A stretch of 64,000 bases of DNA, taken from the NCBI GenBank assembly GCA_942493245.1, contig OW818685.1:3452389-3516388 (forward strand), in the 5' to 3' direction. The translations under genes were made by a program, and so were the position numbers. Under the pieces are notes generated by a model. It was not told the origin of the DNA. It saw only the letters and a program-made list of their open reading frames with translations, and did no database searches. This document shows positions 3,816-10,158 of this stretch, one piece after another. This DNA comes from an uncultured Candidatus Sumerlaeota bacterium. GTDB taxonomy: Bacteria > Sumerlaeota > Sumerlaeia > UBA8349. Position 1 is the stretch's first letter, and every line of letters begins with the position of its first letter.

Positions 3816-5975
3816 CTATTTCCCCGTCTTAAACTCGATCCCCAACTGGCTGAAGATGAAGGCGTACTCGTCCACGGCCATGTCGATCCGCGCCGCGAGC
3901 GGCGAACCCATGCCGTGGCCGGTGTCATTGCTCGTGCGAAGCAGAATGGGCGCTTTCGATGACGTGGCCGCCTGCATCCGGGCCGTCATTTTGCGCGACT
4001 GCATCGGCTGGACGCGCGGGTCGTTGGCCCCGGTCATGAACAACGTCGCCGGATAGGGCGTGCCCTCCTTCACATGGTGGTAGGGCGAATACGCGTACAG
4101 GGCGTCAAACTGAGCCTTGTCCTTCACCGTCCCGTACTCGGGGATGTTGAAACTGCCATTGGGGGACAGTTCCACTCGCAGCATGTCGTAAATCCCCACA
4201 CTCGACACCACCACCCGCATCGCGCCGGGGTGCTGCGTGAGCATCGCGCCCATCAGGAGCCCGCCGTTGCTGCCTCCCTCGATGGCCAACCGGTCAGCTG
4301 AGGTGTAACCTTCTTTCACCAGAAACTGCATCGCGGCGGCAAAATCGTCGAACACGTTCTGCTTGTTCGTCAGGTTTCCCTGTTTGTGCCACTCCTCGCC
4401 ATACTCGCCGCCGCCGCGTATGTTGGCCTGCGCGAAAATAATCCCCTGGTCCAACAGAACCCGCCGCATGGAGGAAAACTTCGGCTCCATGCTCGTTCCG
4501 AACCCACCGTAACCCGTCAGGAAACAGGGATTCTTTCCGTCCAACCGGGCGCCCTTCGGCAGCACGATATTGACCGGGATTTTCGTCCCATCCTTGGACA
4601 CCGCAAACTCGCGCCGCACTTCGGCGTCGCTCAAGTCCACCGGCGTCGTGCTCCCCAGGGCGGTCTTCACGGTCTTATTGGTCTTGCCATCGAATCGGTA
4701 GAACGTGTTGGGCGTCGTGTAGGAGACGGCGGAGAACGCCACCTCGTCGCCTCCGAGGGGAGCCAGCCCCCCCAGCGAGGCCACGGCCGGTTGCTCCGGC
4801 GCCTGGAGCGGCTTACCATCGAGGTCGAACACGCGAATCTGCGAGGGTCCACCCAACTGATAAACCACAAAGAGGCGCGACGCAGTCACGACCAGCGTCG
4901 GCGGATCGTTGTAGAAACTCGTCAGAATAGTGTCCTGAGATTCGGGGACAATCGTCTTCGCCTCGCTGAGTTTCCCGTCGCGTACCGGCATTCGAAGAAT
5001 CTTGCCCCTGGGGGCGCCCTGCACGGAAATCAGGAACAATGTCCCCTCGGGACCAAACGTCGCCTGGACTGCCTTGTCCTCGAATCGGCTGATCTGCCGC
5101 CACTCGCCCTCGGGCGACCGAAGGTAGAACGCGAACTCGCCGCCGTCGCCATTCTGAACCGTCGCCAGCAGGTAGCCGGTCTGGGGGTTCATCTCGACTT
5201 CGATCTCGCCAATGCGCGGCAGGTCGCGCCCCATCTCATAGCGATCCTGCTCGGCGGGCGTGCCGAACTTATGAAAATACAACTGCATGTAGAAATCCAT
5301 ATCCTCGGGCTTGCGCTCGGTTCCCCGGGGGTACCGGGTGAAGAACAGCCCCTGTCCATCCGCCGCGAAGGCCACATCGCCCCCGGCGGTCCCGCCATTC
5401 ACGCGCGGGATCACCTCATGGACCTGCGTCCCCGTGGCGGTGTCGAAAATCCAGATGTCCCCGCTTTCCGTCCCCTTTTTAGAAAGGGAGACCGCCACCA
5501 ACTTCCCGTCGTGCGACGGGACGTACCAGTCGATCGTCGTGGAACCCGAGGGATCGAGGACGTTGGGGTCCACCAGCGCGCGCTCGGCGCCCGAGGCGTC
5601 CAGAGCCGTCCGGGCCACGAGGAAGGCCTGTTGTTTCGGCGGCTCGCTCTTGACGGCCAGAAACACCCCGCCCCGGTGCGACACGTCGCCGTATCCCACC
5701 GTTTTGGCCGACATGATCTCCGTGATGCGCTTGCGGATGGCCTCGACGTTCGGCAGATTGTCGAGCGCCGACCGGGCGTGGGCGTTCTGCGCCTCGCTCC
5801 AGGCGCGCACCTCGGTATTTTCCCAATCCTCCAGCCAACGGTAATCGTCCGCCACCGCCACGCCGTGATACGTGTCCGTCACCGGTTTTTTCGCGGTTTC
5901 GGGCGCCGCGGCGCTCCCCCACCCCGCCACGGCCAGCCACCCCATCGTCAAAAACACTCCCATCTTCCGTCCCAT
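3816..5975 (-). CDS. prolyl oligopeptidase (peptidase S9A family), secreted
   Basis: 719 aa with signal peptide, N-terminal beta-propeller region and a C-terminal alpha/beta hydrolase domain carrying the serine-nucleophile motif GGSNGGLL. The stop lies 22 bp upstream of the GH30 start, so the two are probably co-transcribed. Confidence 0.85.
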   Translation of the reverse strand: MGRKMGVFLTMGWLAVAGWGSAAAPETAKKPVTDTYHGVAVADDYRWLEDWENTEVRAWSEAQNAHARSALDNLPNVEAIRKRITEIMSAKTVGYGDVSHRGGVFLAVKSEPPKQQAFLVARTALDASGAERALVDPNVLDPSGSTTIDWYVPSHDGKLVAVSLSKKGTESGDIWIFDTATGTQVHEVIPRVNGGTAGGDVAFAADGQGLFFTRYPRGTERKPEDMDFYMQLYFHKFGTPAEQDRYEMGRDLPRIGEIEVEMNPQTGYLLATVQNGDGGEFAFYLRSPEGEWRQISRFEDKAVQATFGPEGTLFLISVQGAPRGKILRMPVRDGKLSEAKTIVPESQDTILTSFYNDPPTLVVTASRLFVVYQLGGPSQIRVFDLDGKPLQAPEQPAVASLGGLAPLGGDEVAFSAVSYTTPNTFYRFDGKTNKTVKTALGSTTPVDLSDAEVRREFAVSKDGTKIPVNIVLPKGARLDGKNPCFLTGYGGFGTSMEPKFSSMRRVLLDQGIIFAQANIRGGGEYGEEWHKQGNLTNKQNVFDDFAAAMQFLVKEGYTSADRLAIEGGSNGGLLMGAMLTQHPGAMRVVVSSVGIYDMLRVELSPNGSFNIPEYGTVKDKAQFDALYAYSPYHHVKEGTPYPATLFMTGANDPRVQPMQSRKMTARMQAATSSKAPILLRTSNDTGHGMGSPLAARIDMAVDEYAFIFSQLGIEFKTGK

Positions 5976-6243
5976 CGTGCCGCCCTCCTTCTATTGCCTG
6001 GACTTGCAGCCCTTCCAATTGCTTTCGGACCCGAATTGTACCGGTCCCGGAGGGTTTCAGACAAGTCAATAATCCGATATTGTGCGCCGGTATCCCCTCG
6101 CCACCCAATGGTTCTTAATCCTGTTGTTTCTTTGCTTGACATATCGAGTCCCCTATCTCAATATACCAGAATAGTATAGGTCGTTCCTATTGCCTCCGAA
6201 ATTTTTTCCAACCATCCGAAACAACGAGAAACGAATCATAACA

Positions 6244-9200
6244 ATGGACTCCCAACAAGACGGCATGGCGATAGCGCACGAACTGATCCGCGAAGCGAAA
6301 AAAACCCACGCCCTCTTTCTGGACCTGGGAAACCTCGGATTGACAGAACTCCCCCGTGAACTGGAAGAACTCGTCTGGCTGGAAGGGCTGAATCTGTCTG
6401 TGCTCTTTCGTGACATCGTTCATATGAAATTGGTGGTATCCATAAACGAGTATAGTCCAAATCGGATCAAGTGTCTACCATCATGGATCAGAAAACTCCA
6501 ATGCCTGCGTCACCTATTCCTAACAGATTTAGAGAAACTCAATAATATGGAGGAACTTCAAAGTCTTGAGGTGCTCAGTTTAACTGATTGCAATGATTTG
6601 ACCAATGTTGACAATCTGCAAGATCTAATCCGCCTTCAAGCACTGGACTTAAGCCGCTGTTCGTGTCTAACTAATGTAGACGGACTACAAAAACTAAATG
6701 GACTCAAAGTATTGGACCTATCTGTTTGTTCAAAATTAAAAAGTATCAATTGCTTGCAAAAAATGAACAAACTTCAAGTCCTAAACTTGGATGGTTGTTG
6801 GAGTTTGGAAAATATCTCTTGTCAGCCACAACCATCCCAACTTCGGTTACTAAATGCAAGAGGATGCTGCAACCTGCCCCATATTAACATTCTGCAGGGA
6901 TTGAACCACCTTCAGACGCTGGACTTAAGTGGGTGCGGGAACCTAGCCCAAGTCAATGTGCAGGGGCTGAGGGAACTTCAGTCACTATATTTAAGCGGGT
7001 GTGAGAATCTGACACAGATCAGAGGCCTGCAGGGGTTGAACCACCTTCAGACGCTGGACTTAGGTGGGTGCGAAAACATAGCCCGAGTCAACGTGCAAGG
7101 GCTTAGACAACTTCAGTCGCTGAGATTAAGAAGGTGTCTAAGCCTGAGCCTGGTCAATATACAAGGACTGAACAAACTCCGATCACTGGACCTATGTGCC
7201 TGTACTAGTTTGACCTCTCTCCCAGATTCTGTACTATATATGCCCCAATTAGAGGAACTTTTTCTTTGTGAAAGTAGTATCTATGACATTCCCCGCCCCT
7301 TGCTTGGTCGCGATTACTATGAAAATTGTCTACCGGGTATTCGGGCGCATTTCCACGATCTGGAACAGGGGGAAGAGCTGGACCGGGAGGTCAAACTGAT
7401 CCTGCTGGGGAATGGGTGGGTGGGGAAGACGTCGGTGTGCCGCCGGTTGATCGAGAACCGGTTTGACAAACATGAAAAATCCACCCACGGCGTGCGGTTC
7501 TGGCCGTGGCGTCTGAAGGAAAAGGAGGGCGAGGAACGCGCCATCACGGTCAATGTGTGGGATTTCGGCGGGCAGGACATTTATTACGGGACGCACGCGT
7601 TGTTTCACCAGGGCCGCGCCGTCTTTGTGATTGTGTGGGACGCGGAAACGGAAGGAACCGACTTCACACAAGATGAAGAGACCCAACTGACCCACCGGAA
7701 CTACCCGGTCCAGTACTGGCTCGACTACGTCCAGTCGGTCTCTCCCGGCAGCCCGGTCGTGATCGTTCAGAACAAATGCGCCTCGGATTTCGACTACCGC
7801 GCCGTCTCACTCACGATCAAAAATTCGAGTCAACACCCTCTGCAATGCCGGTTTTGCGCTGAGGAAGCGGACGATGCCCGAAACAACCGCCAACTCCTCG
7901 TGCATTACCTGGAAGAGGCGGTCGAGAAAGTCCTGGGGCACAAAGGCACCCAACGGATTGGTGTGGGTCGCTGGGGGGTGAAACAGGAACTGCGCCGGTT
8001 GTTGAACGAGGAAAAGACGCAAACCCTTTCGATCGAACGGTATCGTAAAATCTGCAGGGACCACCACCTCGACAAGGCGGGCGCCGACGCGCTGCTCGAG
8101 TTTCTGCACCACAGCGGAACCGTTTATCACCAGGCAAACCTGTTTGACAACGCGATCATCCTCGACCTGCGCTGGGTGTGCGACGCCATTTACACCCTGC
8201 TGGACCGGCACAAAGGGTGTTATCACGATATTCGGGAAAGAAACGGTCAATTCACCGGAAACCTCCTGAACCGGCTGGTCTGGCGCGAGGCGGGTTACCA
8301 ACTGTCCGAACAGGATCTGTTTATCGAAATGATGCAGTCGTGTAAAATCTGTTTCAAGTTAGGTGAAAATGATCGCAAGGAAGCCGTCTATCTGGCGCCG
8401 GATCTGACGCCCAACTACACAGACGTCGCGGGGGGATGTTATTGGGAGGAAAAAGGCGAAACATTCTACTGGCGCTATGATCACGGCTTTCTGGGTCCGA
8501 ACGTCCTCCGGCAGGCAATGATCGAAATCGGCAAAACGTATCGGCAATCGGCCTGTTACTGGCAGAACGGCTTTTACCTGCCGCTCAATGCCCTCCAGAG
8601 CCGCGCCCGCGTCACTGCGGAATACGGCCAGAACGGCAACCCGTCCCCCGGGCACATCACCCTGGCCATTCAGGGCGCAGGCAATCCCCAGAACAAGATG
8701 GAAATGCTGGGCATCCTGCGGAACGCCTTTGAAGAAGACCGTCGGTATCGGTGGCGCGAAAGTAATCGCAAAGATTGGGGGTTGGAACAAAAAAAGACCG
8801 GCATCCGGTATCAGGTTTCCCTGGATGGGGAGCACTGGGTGGATCTGGAAGCGTTGAAAACCATGCGCGACCTCGGGAACCCCCATGTGGCCTCTTTCGG
8901 GGACAACGACGCCCCACCCGTTCAACAGGAAGTCGCCGATTACCTCCATTACCTCGACCATCTGGACACCCCGTCCCGGTTCGACGGGGAGACACCCCGT
9001 CCACTCCCCCTCGCAAAAAACCAAGACACCTTGACTCCCATTACAGACGAAAAGGAAACGAAACCCATGAGCCCAGCCAATCCCCCGAAGGTTTTTATCA
9101 GTTACAGTCATGAAACCGCAGAACACGATGAACGTATCCGCAAATTGGCGGATCAGTTGTGTGAAAAGGATGGGATTGAGGTAGAACTCGACCAGTACCA

Positions 9201-9594
9201 TCAACGACCGTCCCAGGGATGGCCACGCTGGTGTGAGGAACAACTGGAACCGGAGAATTCAGACTTTGTCCTGGTCATCTGTACGCAAACCTACCTCGAT
9301 CGAATAAAAGGTAAAGTTCGAGCCGACGAAGGACACGGGGTCTATTGGGAAGGGTCTCTTCTCTACGATTACATCTATGATTCGAAAAGCAATACTCGTT
9401 TCATTCCGGTTCTGTTGAAAGGGGGAAAAGAAGACCATATTCCGCGCCCGATAAAAAGTTCCGGATGGTACAAGATTGAAAAGTTCGATCTTTCGGATCC
9501 GGGTTATAACGCGCTTTATGGGGTCCTGACCAATCAACCGGAGGTCAAAAAACCTCCCAGAGGCACGATTAAACGTCTTCCCGCGAAACCATGA
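6244..9594 (+). CDS. ROCO-family multidomain protein: cysteine-containing LRR - Roc GTPase - COR - C-terminal SEFIR/TIR-like domain
   Basis: ATG at 6244 (the ORF track opens at a TTG at 6190, in frame). About 14 LRRs of the LxxLxLSGCxNL type (nt about 6300-7250). Roc GTPase with G1 GNGWVGKTS (nt 7390 onward), G3 DFGGQ and G4 NKCASD. A COR-like region of about 350 aa follows. The C-terminal domain (nt 9085-9510) begins PKVFISYSHETAEHDERIRKLADQL and contains NTRFIPVLLKGGKEDHIP, which closely resembles SEFIR domains (compare Act1 RKVFITYSMD ... FRFIPVLFPNAKKEHVP). Confidence 0.85.
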   Translation: MDSQQDGMAIAHELIREAKKTHALFLDLGNLGLTELPRELEELVWLEGLNLSVLFRDIVHMKLVVSINEYSPNRIKCLPSWIRKLQCLRHLFLTDLEKLNNMEELQSLEVLSLTDCNDLTNVDNLQDLIRLQALDLSRCSCLTNVDGLQKLNGLKVLDLSVCSKLKSINCLQKMNKLQVLNLDGCWSLENISCQPQPSQLRLLNARGCCNLPHINILQGLNHLQTLDLSGCGNLAQVNVQGLRELQSLYLSGCENLTQIRGLQGLNHLQTLDLGGCENIARVNVQGLRQLQSLRLRRCLSLSLVNIQGLNKLRSLDLCACTSLTSLPDSVLYMPQLEELFLCESSIYDIPRPLLGRDYYENCLPGIRAHFHDLEQGEELDREVKLILLGNGWVGKTSVCRRLIENRFDKHEKSTHGVRFWPWRLKEKEGEERAITVNVWDFGGQDIYYGTHALFHQGRAVFVIVWDAETEGTDFTQDEETQLTHRNYPVQYWLDYVQSVSPGSPVVIVQNKCASDFDYRAVSLTIKNSSQHPLQCRFCAEEADDARNNRQLLVHYLEEAVEKVLGHKGTQRIGVGRWGVKQELRRLLNEEKTQTLSIERYRKICRDHHLDKAGADALLEFLHHSGTVYHQANLFDNAIILDLRWVCDAIYTLLDRHKGCYHDIRERNGQFTGNLLNRLVWREAGYQLSEQDLFIEMMQSCKICFKLGENDRKEAVYLAPDLTPNYTDVAGGCYWEEKGETFYWRYDHGFLGPNVLRQAMIEIGKTYRQSACYWQNGFYLPLNALQSRARVTAEYGQNGNPSPGHITLAIQGAGNPQNKMEMLGILRNAFEEDRRYRWRESNRKDWGLEQKKTGIRYQVSLDGEHWVDLEALKTMRDLGNPHVASFGDNDAPPVQQEVADYLHYLDHLDTPSRFDGETPRPLPLAKNQDTLTPITDEKETKPMSPANPPKVFISYSHETAEHDERIRKLADQLCEKDGIEVELDQYHQRPSQGWPRWCEEQLEPENSDFVLVICTQTYLDRIKGKVRADEGHGVYWEGSLLYDYIYDSKSNTRFIPVLLKGGKEDHIPRPIKSSGWYKIEKFDLSDPGYNALYGVLTNQPEVKKPPRGTIKRLPAKP
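6897..7130 (+). repeat. intragenic tandem duplication of a two-LRR unit (about 135 bp, two copies)
   Basis: GGATTGAACCACCTTCAGACGCTGGACTTAAGTGGGTGCGGGAACCTAGCCCAAGTCAATGTGCAGGGGCTGAGGGAACTTCAG... from about 6899 recurs at about 7034 with roughly 85% identity by eye. Confidence 0.6.
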
Positions 9595-9798: not shown

Positions 9799-10158
9799 AT
9801 GCGGAATATGTTAAACGGCAAGATCCACCGTGCCACCGTCACGGGCGCCGACCTCGCGTATGAGGGAAGCATCACGATCGATCCGGAAACACTCGAAGCA
9901 GTCAACATGCTCGAATACGAGCAAGTTCATGTCCTCAATATCAACAACGGCAACCGGTTCGTGACCTACATCATCAAAGGCGTTCCCGGGGCAAACGAAA
10001 TTCGGATCAATGGCGCGGCCGCCCGCCTGTGCGAGGTGGGCGACAAGGTCATCATCTGTTCGTATGCGGAACTCGAGGAAGAAGTCGCCCGGAAGCATCA
10101 ACCCACGGTCGTGTGGGTGGATGAGGGCAACCGGATCGTGCGCCGCTCGCCTTCGTGA
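9799..10158 (+). CDS. panD: aspartate 1-decarboxylase
   Basis: 119 aa, MLNGKIHRATVTGADLAYEGSITIDPE...NGAAARL, matching the PanD pyruvoyl-enzyme family over its whole length. Confidence 0.9.
   Translation: MRNMLNGKIHRATVTGADLAYEGSITIDPETLEAVNMLEYEQVHVLNINNGNRFVTYIIKGVPGANEIRINGAAARLCEVGDKVIICSYAELEEEVARKHQPTVVWVDEGNRIVRRSPS

Follow-up and report, generated by a model that had tools for sequence, protein, structure and literature searches.

Bacterial ROCO proteins are prokaryotic relatives of LRRK2 and DAPK and are predicted to be immune receptors. Prokaryotic proteins with an AP-GTPase-COR core combine fast-evolving leucine-rich repeats (LRRs) at the N-terminus with at least 24 alternative C-terminal effectors, TIR among them (PMC8195603), and Kaur, Iyer, Burroughs and Aravind predicted in 2021 (eLife) that the class represents counter-invader systems (PMC8195603). 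For CtRoco of Chlorobium tepidum, a GTP-driven change from dimer to monomer has been described (PMC11052575). A single-gene anti-phage system of Bacillus sp. NIO-1130, bSEFIR (PADLOC PDLC03957; Millman et al. 2022), defends against phage phi29 (10.1101/2022.05.11.491447), and a Bacillus SEFIR protein has been reported to defend by NAD+ depletion via its SEFIR domain (10.1101/2024.02.11.579819). Here we describe a ROCO-type gene of the order LRR-Roc-COR-A/B-SEFIR at 6244-9594 on the plus strand of a 64,000-nucleotide stretch from an uncultured Candidatus Sumerlaeota bacterium (contig OW818685.1, positions 3,452,389 to 3,516,388; hereafter the window). The DNA of this gene is a three-part compositional mosaic, in which LRR- and SEFIR-coding parts with atypical codon usage surround a host-like Roc-COR core.

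The open reading frame (ORF) spans 6190-9594 (+). The ATG at 6244 was chosen as the start, since tblastn matches of homologues begin at query residues 1-15 and the resulting N-terminus agrees with the family consensus. It opens an intact protein of 1116 amino acids (aa; 1116 codons plus stop), which runs without interruption across the composition breaks. Pfam searches identified several LRR families at about aa 40-350, the Roc domain (PF08477, 5.6e-25, aa 384-512), the COR region directly C-terminal of it (COR-A, PF16095, 2e-25, aa 579-721; COR-B, PF25497, 7e-8, aa 739-884) and a C-terminal SEFIR domain (1.4e-13, aa 948-1077), which in all occupies aa 946-1116. Consistent with this architecture, a PDB sequence search matched the LRR-Roc-COR part to CtRoco (6hlu, 8r4b) and MbRoco2 (4wnr), as well as to the Roc domain of LRRK2, and the C-terminus to 5y8e (B. 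cereus SEFIR, 8.4e-12) and 9ot1 (Act1). The nucleotide-binding motifs are intact, both in the P-loop (G389-N-G-W-V-G-K395-T) and in switch II (D440-F-G-G-Q444); G389, N390, G391, G394 and K395 of the former and D440, F441, G442, G443 and Q444 of the latter are invariant columns in a 30-sequence alignment. In the SEFIR domain, E1036 (in YWEG) aligns with a glutamate of the B. cereus SEFIR domain and is near-invariant in a mixed TIR/SEFIR alignment.

Composition breaks at the module boundaries

A preliminary description of this DNA had claimed that the LRR-coding part is AT-rich against a GC-rich genome, and this was borne out. The GC content of 6300-7260 was 0.447, compared with a mean of 0.593 for the window and a standard deviation of 0.035 for 960-nt windows, and the lowest-GC 960-nt stretch of the window starts at 6401, within the gene (GC 0.439). 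At third codon positions, the GC content (GC3) of the whole LRR part was 0.449, going down to 0.32-0.35 in 6514-6873, while 15 host genes in the window had a GC3 of 0.72-0.84 (about 0.80) and their lowest value over 200 codons was 0.665. The preliminary description had also held that the Roc-COR-SEFIR part returns to host-like GC. This is correct for Roc (GC3 0.756) and COR (0.70-0.715), and incorrect for the SEFIR domain, whose GC3 was 0.485 (0.495 when its linker is included). Fisher tests against the GC3 of Roc-COR were significant for both the LRR (p = 1.4e-16) and the SEFIR part (p = 9.6e-9), and no GC3 difference was seen between these two parts (p = 0.24).

In codon fit to the host genes, Roc-COR (z = -1.2) and the N-terminal cap (z = -1.8) scored above the SEFIR part (z = -7.3) and the LRR part (z = -13.5). 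Of the leucines, 26/70 in the LRR part (37%), 1/53 in Roc-COR and 18/754 in the host genes (2.4%) are encoded by CTA or TTA. Within the 312-codon LRR array (6406-7341) there were 16 CTA and 10 TTA codons among the 70 leucines, and CTA was used for only 4 of the 754 leucines in host genes. Such a load of CTA and TTA codons may limit translation of the LRR part. The first and second codon positions of the LRR part had GC contents of 0.53 and 0.33, respectively, compared with 0.61 and 0.34-0.42 elsewhere in the gene. Amino-acid content was considered as the cause of the GC drop and rejected: the shift is largest at third codon positions and is also found within synonymous leucine codons, so that amino-acid content does not explain it. 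Together these data support the view that, at synonymous sites, the LRR-coding part has a foreign composition.

To place the breaks, the third-position series was segmented by maximum likelihood, with the number of segments chosen by the Bayesian information criterion (BIC). The best single change point gave a log-likelihood gain of 19.1, compared with a maximum of 10.6 in 2000 permutations, and BIC preferred three segments: 6244-7341 (GC3 0.47), 7342-8991 (0.725) and 8992-9591 (0.495). A support interval was defined for each break as the positions within 2 log-likelihood units of the best one. The interval of the first break, 7330-7384 (+; aa 362-380), lies inside the pre-Roc linker (NCLPGIRAHFHDLEQGEELD), which the family consensus keeps as NCLPxLRAxF. 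That of the second break, 8977-9100 (+; aa 911-952), includes aa 935, from which point onward the product resembles SEFIR domains on other scaffolds; the BLASTP alignment to one such protein, from locus L083, begins at query residue 935. Both composition breaks thus coincide with module boundaries, and the position of the first one at the LRR/Roc junction fits a sensor module with a history unlike that of the GTPase core.

The N-terminal cap with the first LRR (6244-6405, +) is family-conserved (A18, L26, L28, P37, L43-L51). Its GC3 of 0.648 was not distinguishable from that of Roc-COR (p = 0.27) and differed from that of the LRR array (p = 0.005). The array proper comprises units 2-14 (6406-7341, +), which are cysteine-type LxxLxLxxCxxL repeats of 22-23 aa with atypical codon usage and a GC3 of 0.439. 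It is followed by the Roc and COR-A/COR-B core (7342-8991, +; GC3 0.725, host-like codon usage) and by the linker and SEFIR effector domain of the STIR superfamily (8992-9591, +; GC3 0.495, atypical codon usage). Finer breaks, namely one at the N-terminal cap and splits of the LRR array, were not favoured by BIC.

The public call for this gene, P0001, covers only 7240-9594 (+). Its 784-aa product is 100% identical to our translation over 70% of the query and begins with MPQLEELF, that is, at the internal Met333, which leaves the whole LRR sensor uncalled. The call is probably short because the model used for the genome does not score the AT-rich region, with its rare codons, as coding. An internal promoter for the shorter product was also considered; a consensus match is present at 7210-7237, but as its end is just 3 nt ahead of Met333 it is not a plausible promoter for this product.

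The 135-bp repeat within the LRR array

Tandem Repeats Finder reported a repeat at 6892-7137 with a period of 135, 1.8 copies and 84% matches, and a separate repeat search found 135 nt at 76% identity. A period of 135 nt equals 45 codons, or two LRR units (23 + 22 aa), in agreement with the alternation of two unit types across units 8-12. Codon-by-codon comparison showed that the clearly similar part is a 95-nt core, 83 of whose 95 positions are identical (87.4%). Its first copy (6892-6986, +) contains the end of unit 8, the whole of unit 9 and the start of unit 10, and the second copy, 135 nt downstream (7027-7121, +), contains the end of unit 10, the whole of unit 11 and the start of unit 12. 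The in-register flanks of the core are 50-59% identical (heterogeneity p = 8.5e-7), which is the background level for LRR units: their mean identity was 47.5%, and the next best offset gave 64% over 95 nt.

The repeat is real, non-random and old. The divergence between the core copies was about 0.44 at synonymous sites (dS) and about 0.07 at nonsynonymous sites (dN), with a dN/dS of about 0.17. The two copies differ by five amino-acid changes, and the positions 2, 3 and 5 on the concave beta-strand face are identical in units 9 and 11. The core thus shows purifying selection and not the diversifying selection that the preliminary description had expected. The preliminary description had read the repeat as a recent duplication of two units. 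A periodicity of 135 bp is indeed present, and on the coordinates given there, 6899-6990 and 7034-7125 match at 76/92 positions (83%), or at 97/132 (73%) over the full span that was claimed. The clear likeness, however, is confined to the 95-nt core, and recency has to be given up: instead of the uniformly high identity and low synonymous divergence of a recent tandem duplication, 95 of the 135 nt are alike and the dS of even this part is about 0.44.

Repeats of this kind are also ordinary in the family. The best internal 95-nt LRR repeat in 73 relatives had a median identity of 92%, was at least 87% identical in 48 of the 73 and reached 97-100% in many, at offsets of one, two or three units; the gene's own 87% falls below the family median. 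In many relatives (L058, L057, L030, L010, L059, L072 and L045), 95-nt LRR segments are repeated at 99-100% identity, at offsets of one, two or three units. This indicates very recent unit duplication or conversion, and could also stem from collapse or expansion errors in metagenome assembly. The 135-bp-period repeat would accordingly be a product of normal LRR-unit turnover, through unequal exchange or gene conversion between in-register units.

The array is also heterogeneous in composition around the repeat. Its most AT-rich sub-segment, 6451-6864 (+), runs from the end of unit 2 to the start of unit 8 (GC3 0.341; codon fit z = -17.2). It is followed by a GC3-richer patch that holds the repeat core, 6865-7095 (+; GC3 0.662), and by a distal sub-segment, 7096-7341 (+; GC3 0.38). 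The GC3 of the patch differed from that of the flanking LRR segments (p = 7.9e-6 and 4.5e-4) and not from that of Roc-COR (p = 0.28), with the proviso that the patch was defined post hoc and that its duplicated codons are counted twice; its codon fit (z = -6.8) was not host-like.

Three more specific origins of the repeat can be put forward, to which we give rather little weight. A two-unit tandem duplication with very uneven divergence agrees with the dS of the flanks (0.5-0.8), which is not clearly above that of the core (0.44), while their dN is far higher (0.53-0.89 compared with 0.07). A conversion tract of about 95 bp between already diverged units would instead account for the sharp fall in identity from 87% to 50-59% at both ends of the core. 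Lastly, the repeat could be what is left of an older array, GC-richer and built of alternating units, that was cut at both ends by the AT-rich segments. This is suggested by the closeness of the identity drops (6891/6892 and 7121/7122) to the GC3 change points near the core edges (6864/6865 and 7095/7096), which are within about 27 nt of them, but BIC does not favour dividing the array further and the codon choice of the patch is not host-like despite its GC3. With only 9-24 synonymous sites per block, the dS values overlap.

Relatives of the gene and of its effector domain

A whole-protein search returned 867 homologues, nearly all of which are LRR-Roc-COR proteins with a TIR-like C-terminus. 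A genome scan collected 80 loci from planctomycetes, acidobacteria, verrucomicrobia, proteobacteria, cyanobacteria and others; the relatives found in this way are all at most 37% identical to the gene product, and planctomycetes dominate the best matches. No close orthologue turned up in the collections searched, and contig look-ups with the exact sequences of the protein, of P0001 and of a neighbouring gene gave no match. Of all homologues, P0002 comes closest, with identities of 51% in Roc-COR, 39% in the LRR part and 38.5% in SEFIR. It is itself an LRR-Roc-COR-SEFIR protein (L001 10001-13543, 1180 aa), the whole gene of which lies about 10 GC points below its flanks (0.54-0.68 compared with 0.68-0.75). 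It is adjoined by dnaE-like and other housekeeping genes, without synteny to the window.

The LRR part varies among homologues, as the preliminary description had expected: in 119 of them, the length before Roc ranged from 32 to 907 aa, with a median of 415. Variation was also seen in composition. The GC3 of the LRR part minus that of Roc-COR averaged -0.05 in the relatives (standard deviation 0.086, n = 33, down to -0.19) and was -0.28 in the gene, and for the C-terminal part the corresponding difference averaged 0.00 (standard deviation 0.064, n = 34), compared with -0.24 in the gene. The gene therefore shows the most extreme value on both contrasts among the relatives compared. A strong GC3 change point was present in 12 relatives; in 11 of them it fell no more than 75 codons before or after the start of Roc. 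The LRR GC3 of relatives can be below or above that of the core, with L043 (+0.18) and L072 (+0.12) as examples of the latter. In reading the relatives' breaks, it should be borne in mind that arrays of near-identical units can shift in GC3 by a founder effect alone. This does not apply to the present gene, because its AT-rich LRR units share an identity of only about 47%; divergence within this genome should have equilibrated the GC3 of a founder unit, and a founder effect is thus not the explanation.

The SEFIR domain has relationships that are incongruent with those of the remainder of the protein. In a search with SEFIR only, more than 100 proteins were closer to the gene's SEFIR domain than that of P0002; in score, 87 proteins ranked above the latter. 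The best relatives match the domain at 55-60% identity along some 90% of its length and carry it on unrelated scaffolds, either in short proteins or in architectures of another kind. The SEFIR domain of P0002 in turn has different nearest relatives, at 57% identity. Among the 120 closest ROCO homologues, a SEFIR domain of this kind was detectable by BLAST in only two, one of which is the gene's own call P0001. Since the two closest ROCO relatives with SEFIR thus drew it from different sub-lineages, their effectors appear to have been fused or replaced independently. Judged from these sequence relationships, the data point to an independent effector swap, and it is at the SEFIR end alone that phylogeny gives independent evidence for module exchange.

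The relative from L083 illustrates the unrelated scaffolds. Its ORF (L083 3799-6966) encodes 1055 aa with an AAA_16 STAND ATPase at the N-terminus, and what it has in common with the gene product is SEFIR only (55% identity from aa 935). The public call for it, P0157, is given as 321 aa and represents the end of this uninterrupted ORF; the uncalled part has a GC content of 0.52-0.60, compared with about 0.70 in the flanks. In L084, a further SEFIR relative is found some 2.8 kb downstream of a gene for a phage-type integrase. There, 6001-9015 holds a stand-alone SEFIR gene (183 aa) and a gene for a 757-aa protein without Pfam match, at a GC content of 0.61-0.64, and the surroundings, including the integrase gene, have a GC content of 0.38-0.56. 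This is the reverse mismatch and may mark a two-gene mobile SEFIR cassette.

Origin of the mosaic and comparison with known systems

The reading that we prefer is that the DNA of this gene is a recombinant mosaic, in which an LRR array and a SEFIR part with a lower-GC signature surround a host-like Roc-COR core; we give this a probability of about 0.6. The product would work as a counter-invader protein in which the LRR solenoid is the sensor, the Roc-COR GTPase the switch and SEFIR the effector. The data themselves show the architecture, the mosaic, where the breaks lie, the SEFIR incongruence and how long and how old the repeat is; from them we infer both recombination as the cause of the mosaic and an immune function of the product. 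In this scheme, the core carries the codon usage of the genome, as the short N-terminal cap probably does too, and the LRR array and SEFIR would each have been introduced or exchanged at a later time than the core, by recombination in or near the conserved junctions, that is, the pre-Roc linker and the linker between COR and SEFIR. The direction could have been either way: new ends may have been joined onto a resident core, or the core of a resident paralogue may have been converted into an incoming gene. A narrower version, that sensor and effector were each swapped in from lower-GC lineages, with the cap and the pre-Roc and COR-effector linkers as recombination anchors, is plausible, and we put it at somewhat less than an even chance. 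If this cassette exchange were true, the family-wide LRR/Roc break would be a general recombination hotspot that allows independent re-targeting and re-arming, and the rare-codon load of the incoming LRR part might throttle the expression of a dangerous protein.

Plausible vehicles are plasmids, since ROCO genes are found on them, and temperate phages, since SEFIR genes are found there. At the locus itself, no mobile element lies closer than an IS3-family insertion sequence at 323-1493 on the minus strand, some 4.7 kb upstream of the ROCO gene. It comprises OrfA (1203-1493; HTH_Tnp_1) and orfB (323-1180; rve integrase core). An AT-rich orphan ORF without Pfam match adjoins it (1621-2073, +; 150 aa; GC 0.50), and this area is the only stretch with a GC content below 0.50 over 960 nt besides the windows that overlap the LRR region. 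The upstream neighbours of the ROCO gene, a GH30 gene and the prolyl oligopeptidase gene at 3816-5975, are on the minus strand, and the downstream neighbours are panD (9799-10158), a radical SAM enzyme gene and a glutamine synthetase III gene. The AT-rich intergenic region between the prolyl oligopeptidase and ROCO genes (5976-6243; GC 0.48) contains a sole promoter-like consensus match, on the minus strand (6064-6035), and no such match was found on the plus strand upstream of the ATG at 6244.

Several observations weigh against the recombinant mosaic. A protein search for a donor with the LRR part only gave a best identity of about 40%, a scan of JGI metagenomes did not find close relatives, and blastn against the window and all fetched loci gave no DNA match beyond the gene's own repeat. 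As no donor was found, it is composition that speaks for an exchange of the LRR part. The SEFIR relatives with fetched DNA (three; four loci, L082-L085) are not AT-rich (GC3 0.62-0.77), and the 55-60% identity of the closest SEFIR relatives indicates a different lineage and not a recent donor. Around the gene there were no convincing flanking direct repeats, the window contains no tRNA, there was no Rfam match and no integrase adjoins the gene. The neighbours are housekeeping genes, which is not the setting of a defence island or mobile region (the PADLOC scan covered the ROCO protein only), and the atypical composition of an acquired island was found for the LRR and SEFIR parts only. Furthermore, two separate exchanges in one gene are less parsimonious than a single event, and the mildly lower LRR GC3 in GC-rich relatives indicates that a non-recombinational cause could contribute. 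As to function, the literature searched yielded no experimental proof of an immune function for a bacterial ROCO protein.

The parsimony argument is met by an alternative that we consider unlikely, in which the whole gene was recently acquired from a lower-GC donor and its Roc-COR core was overwritten by conversion from a resident ROCO paralogue. Such a single event would be more parsimonious than two end replacements and agrees with the low GC of both ends and of the upstream intergenic region, and with the absence of a GC3 difference between the LRR and SEFIR parts. Roc-COR is the only part conserved enough to recombine, and bacteria can hold many ROCO paralogues, up to 11 in Haliscomenobacter (PMC8195603), although blastn revealed neither a ROCO paralogue nor silent cassettes within the 64-kb window. 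The GC3 of the N-terminal cap (0.65, from 54 codons only) is nearer to the core than to the array, which speaks against this alternative, and the SEFIR incongruence is compatible with either direction of exchange.

Less likely still is an origin without any exchange, with the low GC3 made in place, either by selection for rare codons as a throttle on a potentially toxic receptor or by AT-biased drift of the divergent ends, with GC-biased conversion with paralogues keeping the conserved core GC-rich. The LRR part is full of codons nearly absent from host genes, which would slow translation, but translational selection works on whole genes and not on domains. Drift would have had to reach a GC3 of 0.34, which is unseen elsewhere in the window, where no 200-codon stretch of a host gene is below 0.665. 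Most GC-rich relatives have an LRR GC3 below that of Roc-COR and the change point recurs at the same junction, as a cause acting in place would have it, yet in some relatives (L043, L072) the LRR part is GC3-richer than the core. GC-biased conversion correctly predicts that the sole homogenised patch of the array is its GC3-richest part, and nevertheless an origin in place leaves the incongruent SEFIR relationships unexplained.

That the discontinuity is an artefact of Leu/Asn-rich LRR content or of chimeric assembly is very improbable: LRRs are rich in Leu, Asn, Ile and Lys, the first two codon positions are somewhat lower in GC there and repeat-rich genes are prone to misassembly, but the largest shift is at third positions (0.44 compared with 0.725) and includes synonymous leucine codons, the ORF runs through every break without interruption, its domain order and junction motifs are those of the family and the contig is 5,996,854 bp long.

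The recombinant mosaic retains part of the preliminary description, according to which the sensor was acquired or exchanged as a module. The foreign codon usage of the LRR part and the break at the LRR/Roc junction agree with that view, while a donor was not found and the agreement is one of composition. Three findings would have spoken against that description as a whole, namely a uniform GC content along the gene, a repeat identity below about 70% and the same repeat number and sequence in all homologues; in the event, GC content was not uniform, repeat identity was at least 73% and LRR lengths differed.

If the mosaic represents real module exchange, the gene would be a clean natural example of sensor and effector changing independently of the GTPase switch, and the pre-Roc linker could serve as a junction for engineering chimeric receptors. 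A practical consequence concerns annotation. Atypical composition probably made the public call lose the LRR sensor (784 instead of 1116 aa), and of the 1055 aa of a related SEFIR gene only 321 were called. Surveys of domain architecture that rely on calls of this kind will under-count sensor domains.

The closest structurally characterised proteins are CtRoco (6hlu, 8r4b, 3dpu) and MbRoco2 (4wnr), both bacterial homologues of LRRK2. Homology to CtRoco extends over LRR-Roc-COR (E = 7e-28, residues 70-825), and by analogy the GTPase may act as a conformational switch. The dimer-monomer cycle of CtRoco is the best available model for the predicted switch. Unlike the present protein, CtRoco has no SEFIR or TIR effector, and its identity to the gene product is low.

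For the effector, the comparison is with bSEFIR, whose SEFIR domain is homologous to that of the gene (PADLOC profile, 6.2e-46, aa 940-1109; 5y8e, 8.4e-12). In bSEFIR, however, this domain is N-terminal and joined to a family-specific region, whereas here it is C-terminal, behind LRR-Roc-COR. Membership of the bSEFIR family was considered and rejected, as SEFIR is at the wrong end and, of the 412 profile positions, only 33-194 are matched. Judged by the Bacillus SEFIR system, the domain would most likely be an NAD+-consuming or oligomerising death domain, NAD+ depletion being the most likely effector chemistry.

A parallel outside bacteria is offered by the ROCO genes of brown algae (PMC11378527). 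They also join a ROCO core to LRR repertoires that are diversified by unit shuffling, and their products are proposed as candidate immune receptors; the difference lies in their eukaryotic exon shuffling and alternative splicing, in place of which the present gene would have recombined within one ORF.

The likeness is greatest to the AP-GTPase conflict systems. The gene has the N-terminal LRR part, the AP-GTPase-COR core and the single variable C-terminal effector of that class, and the fetched loci of its family show both LRR length variation and near-identical internal repeats. It departs from the published account in its effector, the word SEFIR being absent from PMC8195603, and in its sharp three-part mosaic, which is this gene's own and the most extreme of about 34 relatives. 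The gene is thus an unusually sharp instance of known modular evolution in known bacterial ROCO (AP-GTPase) conflict proteins.

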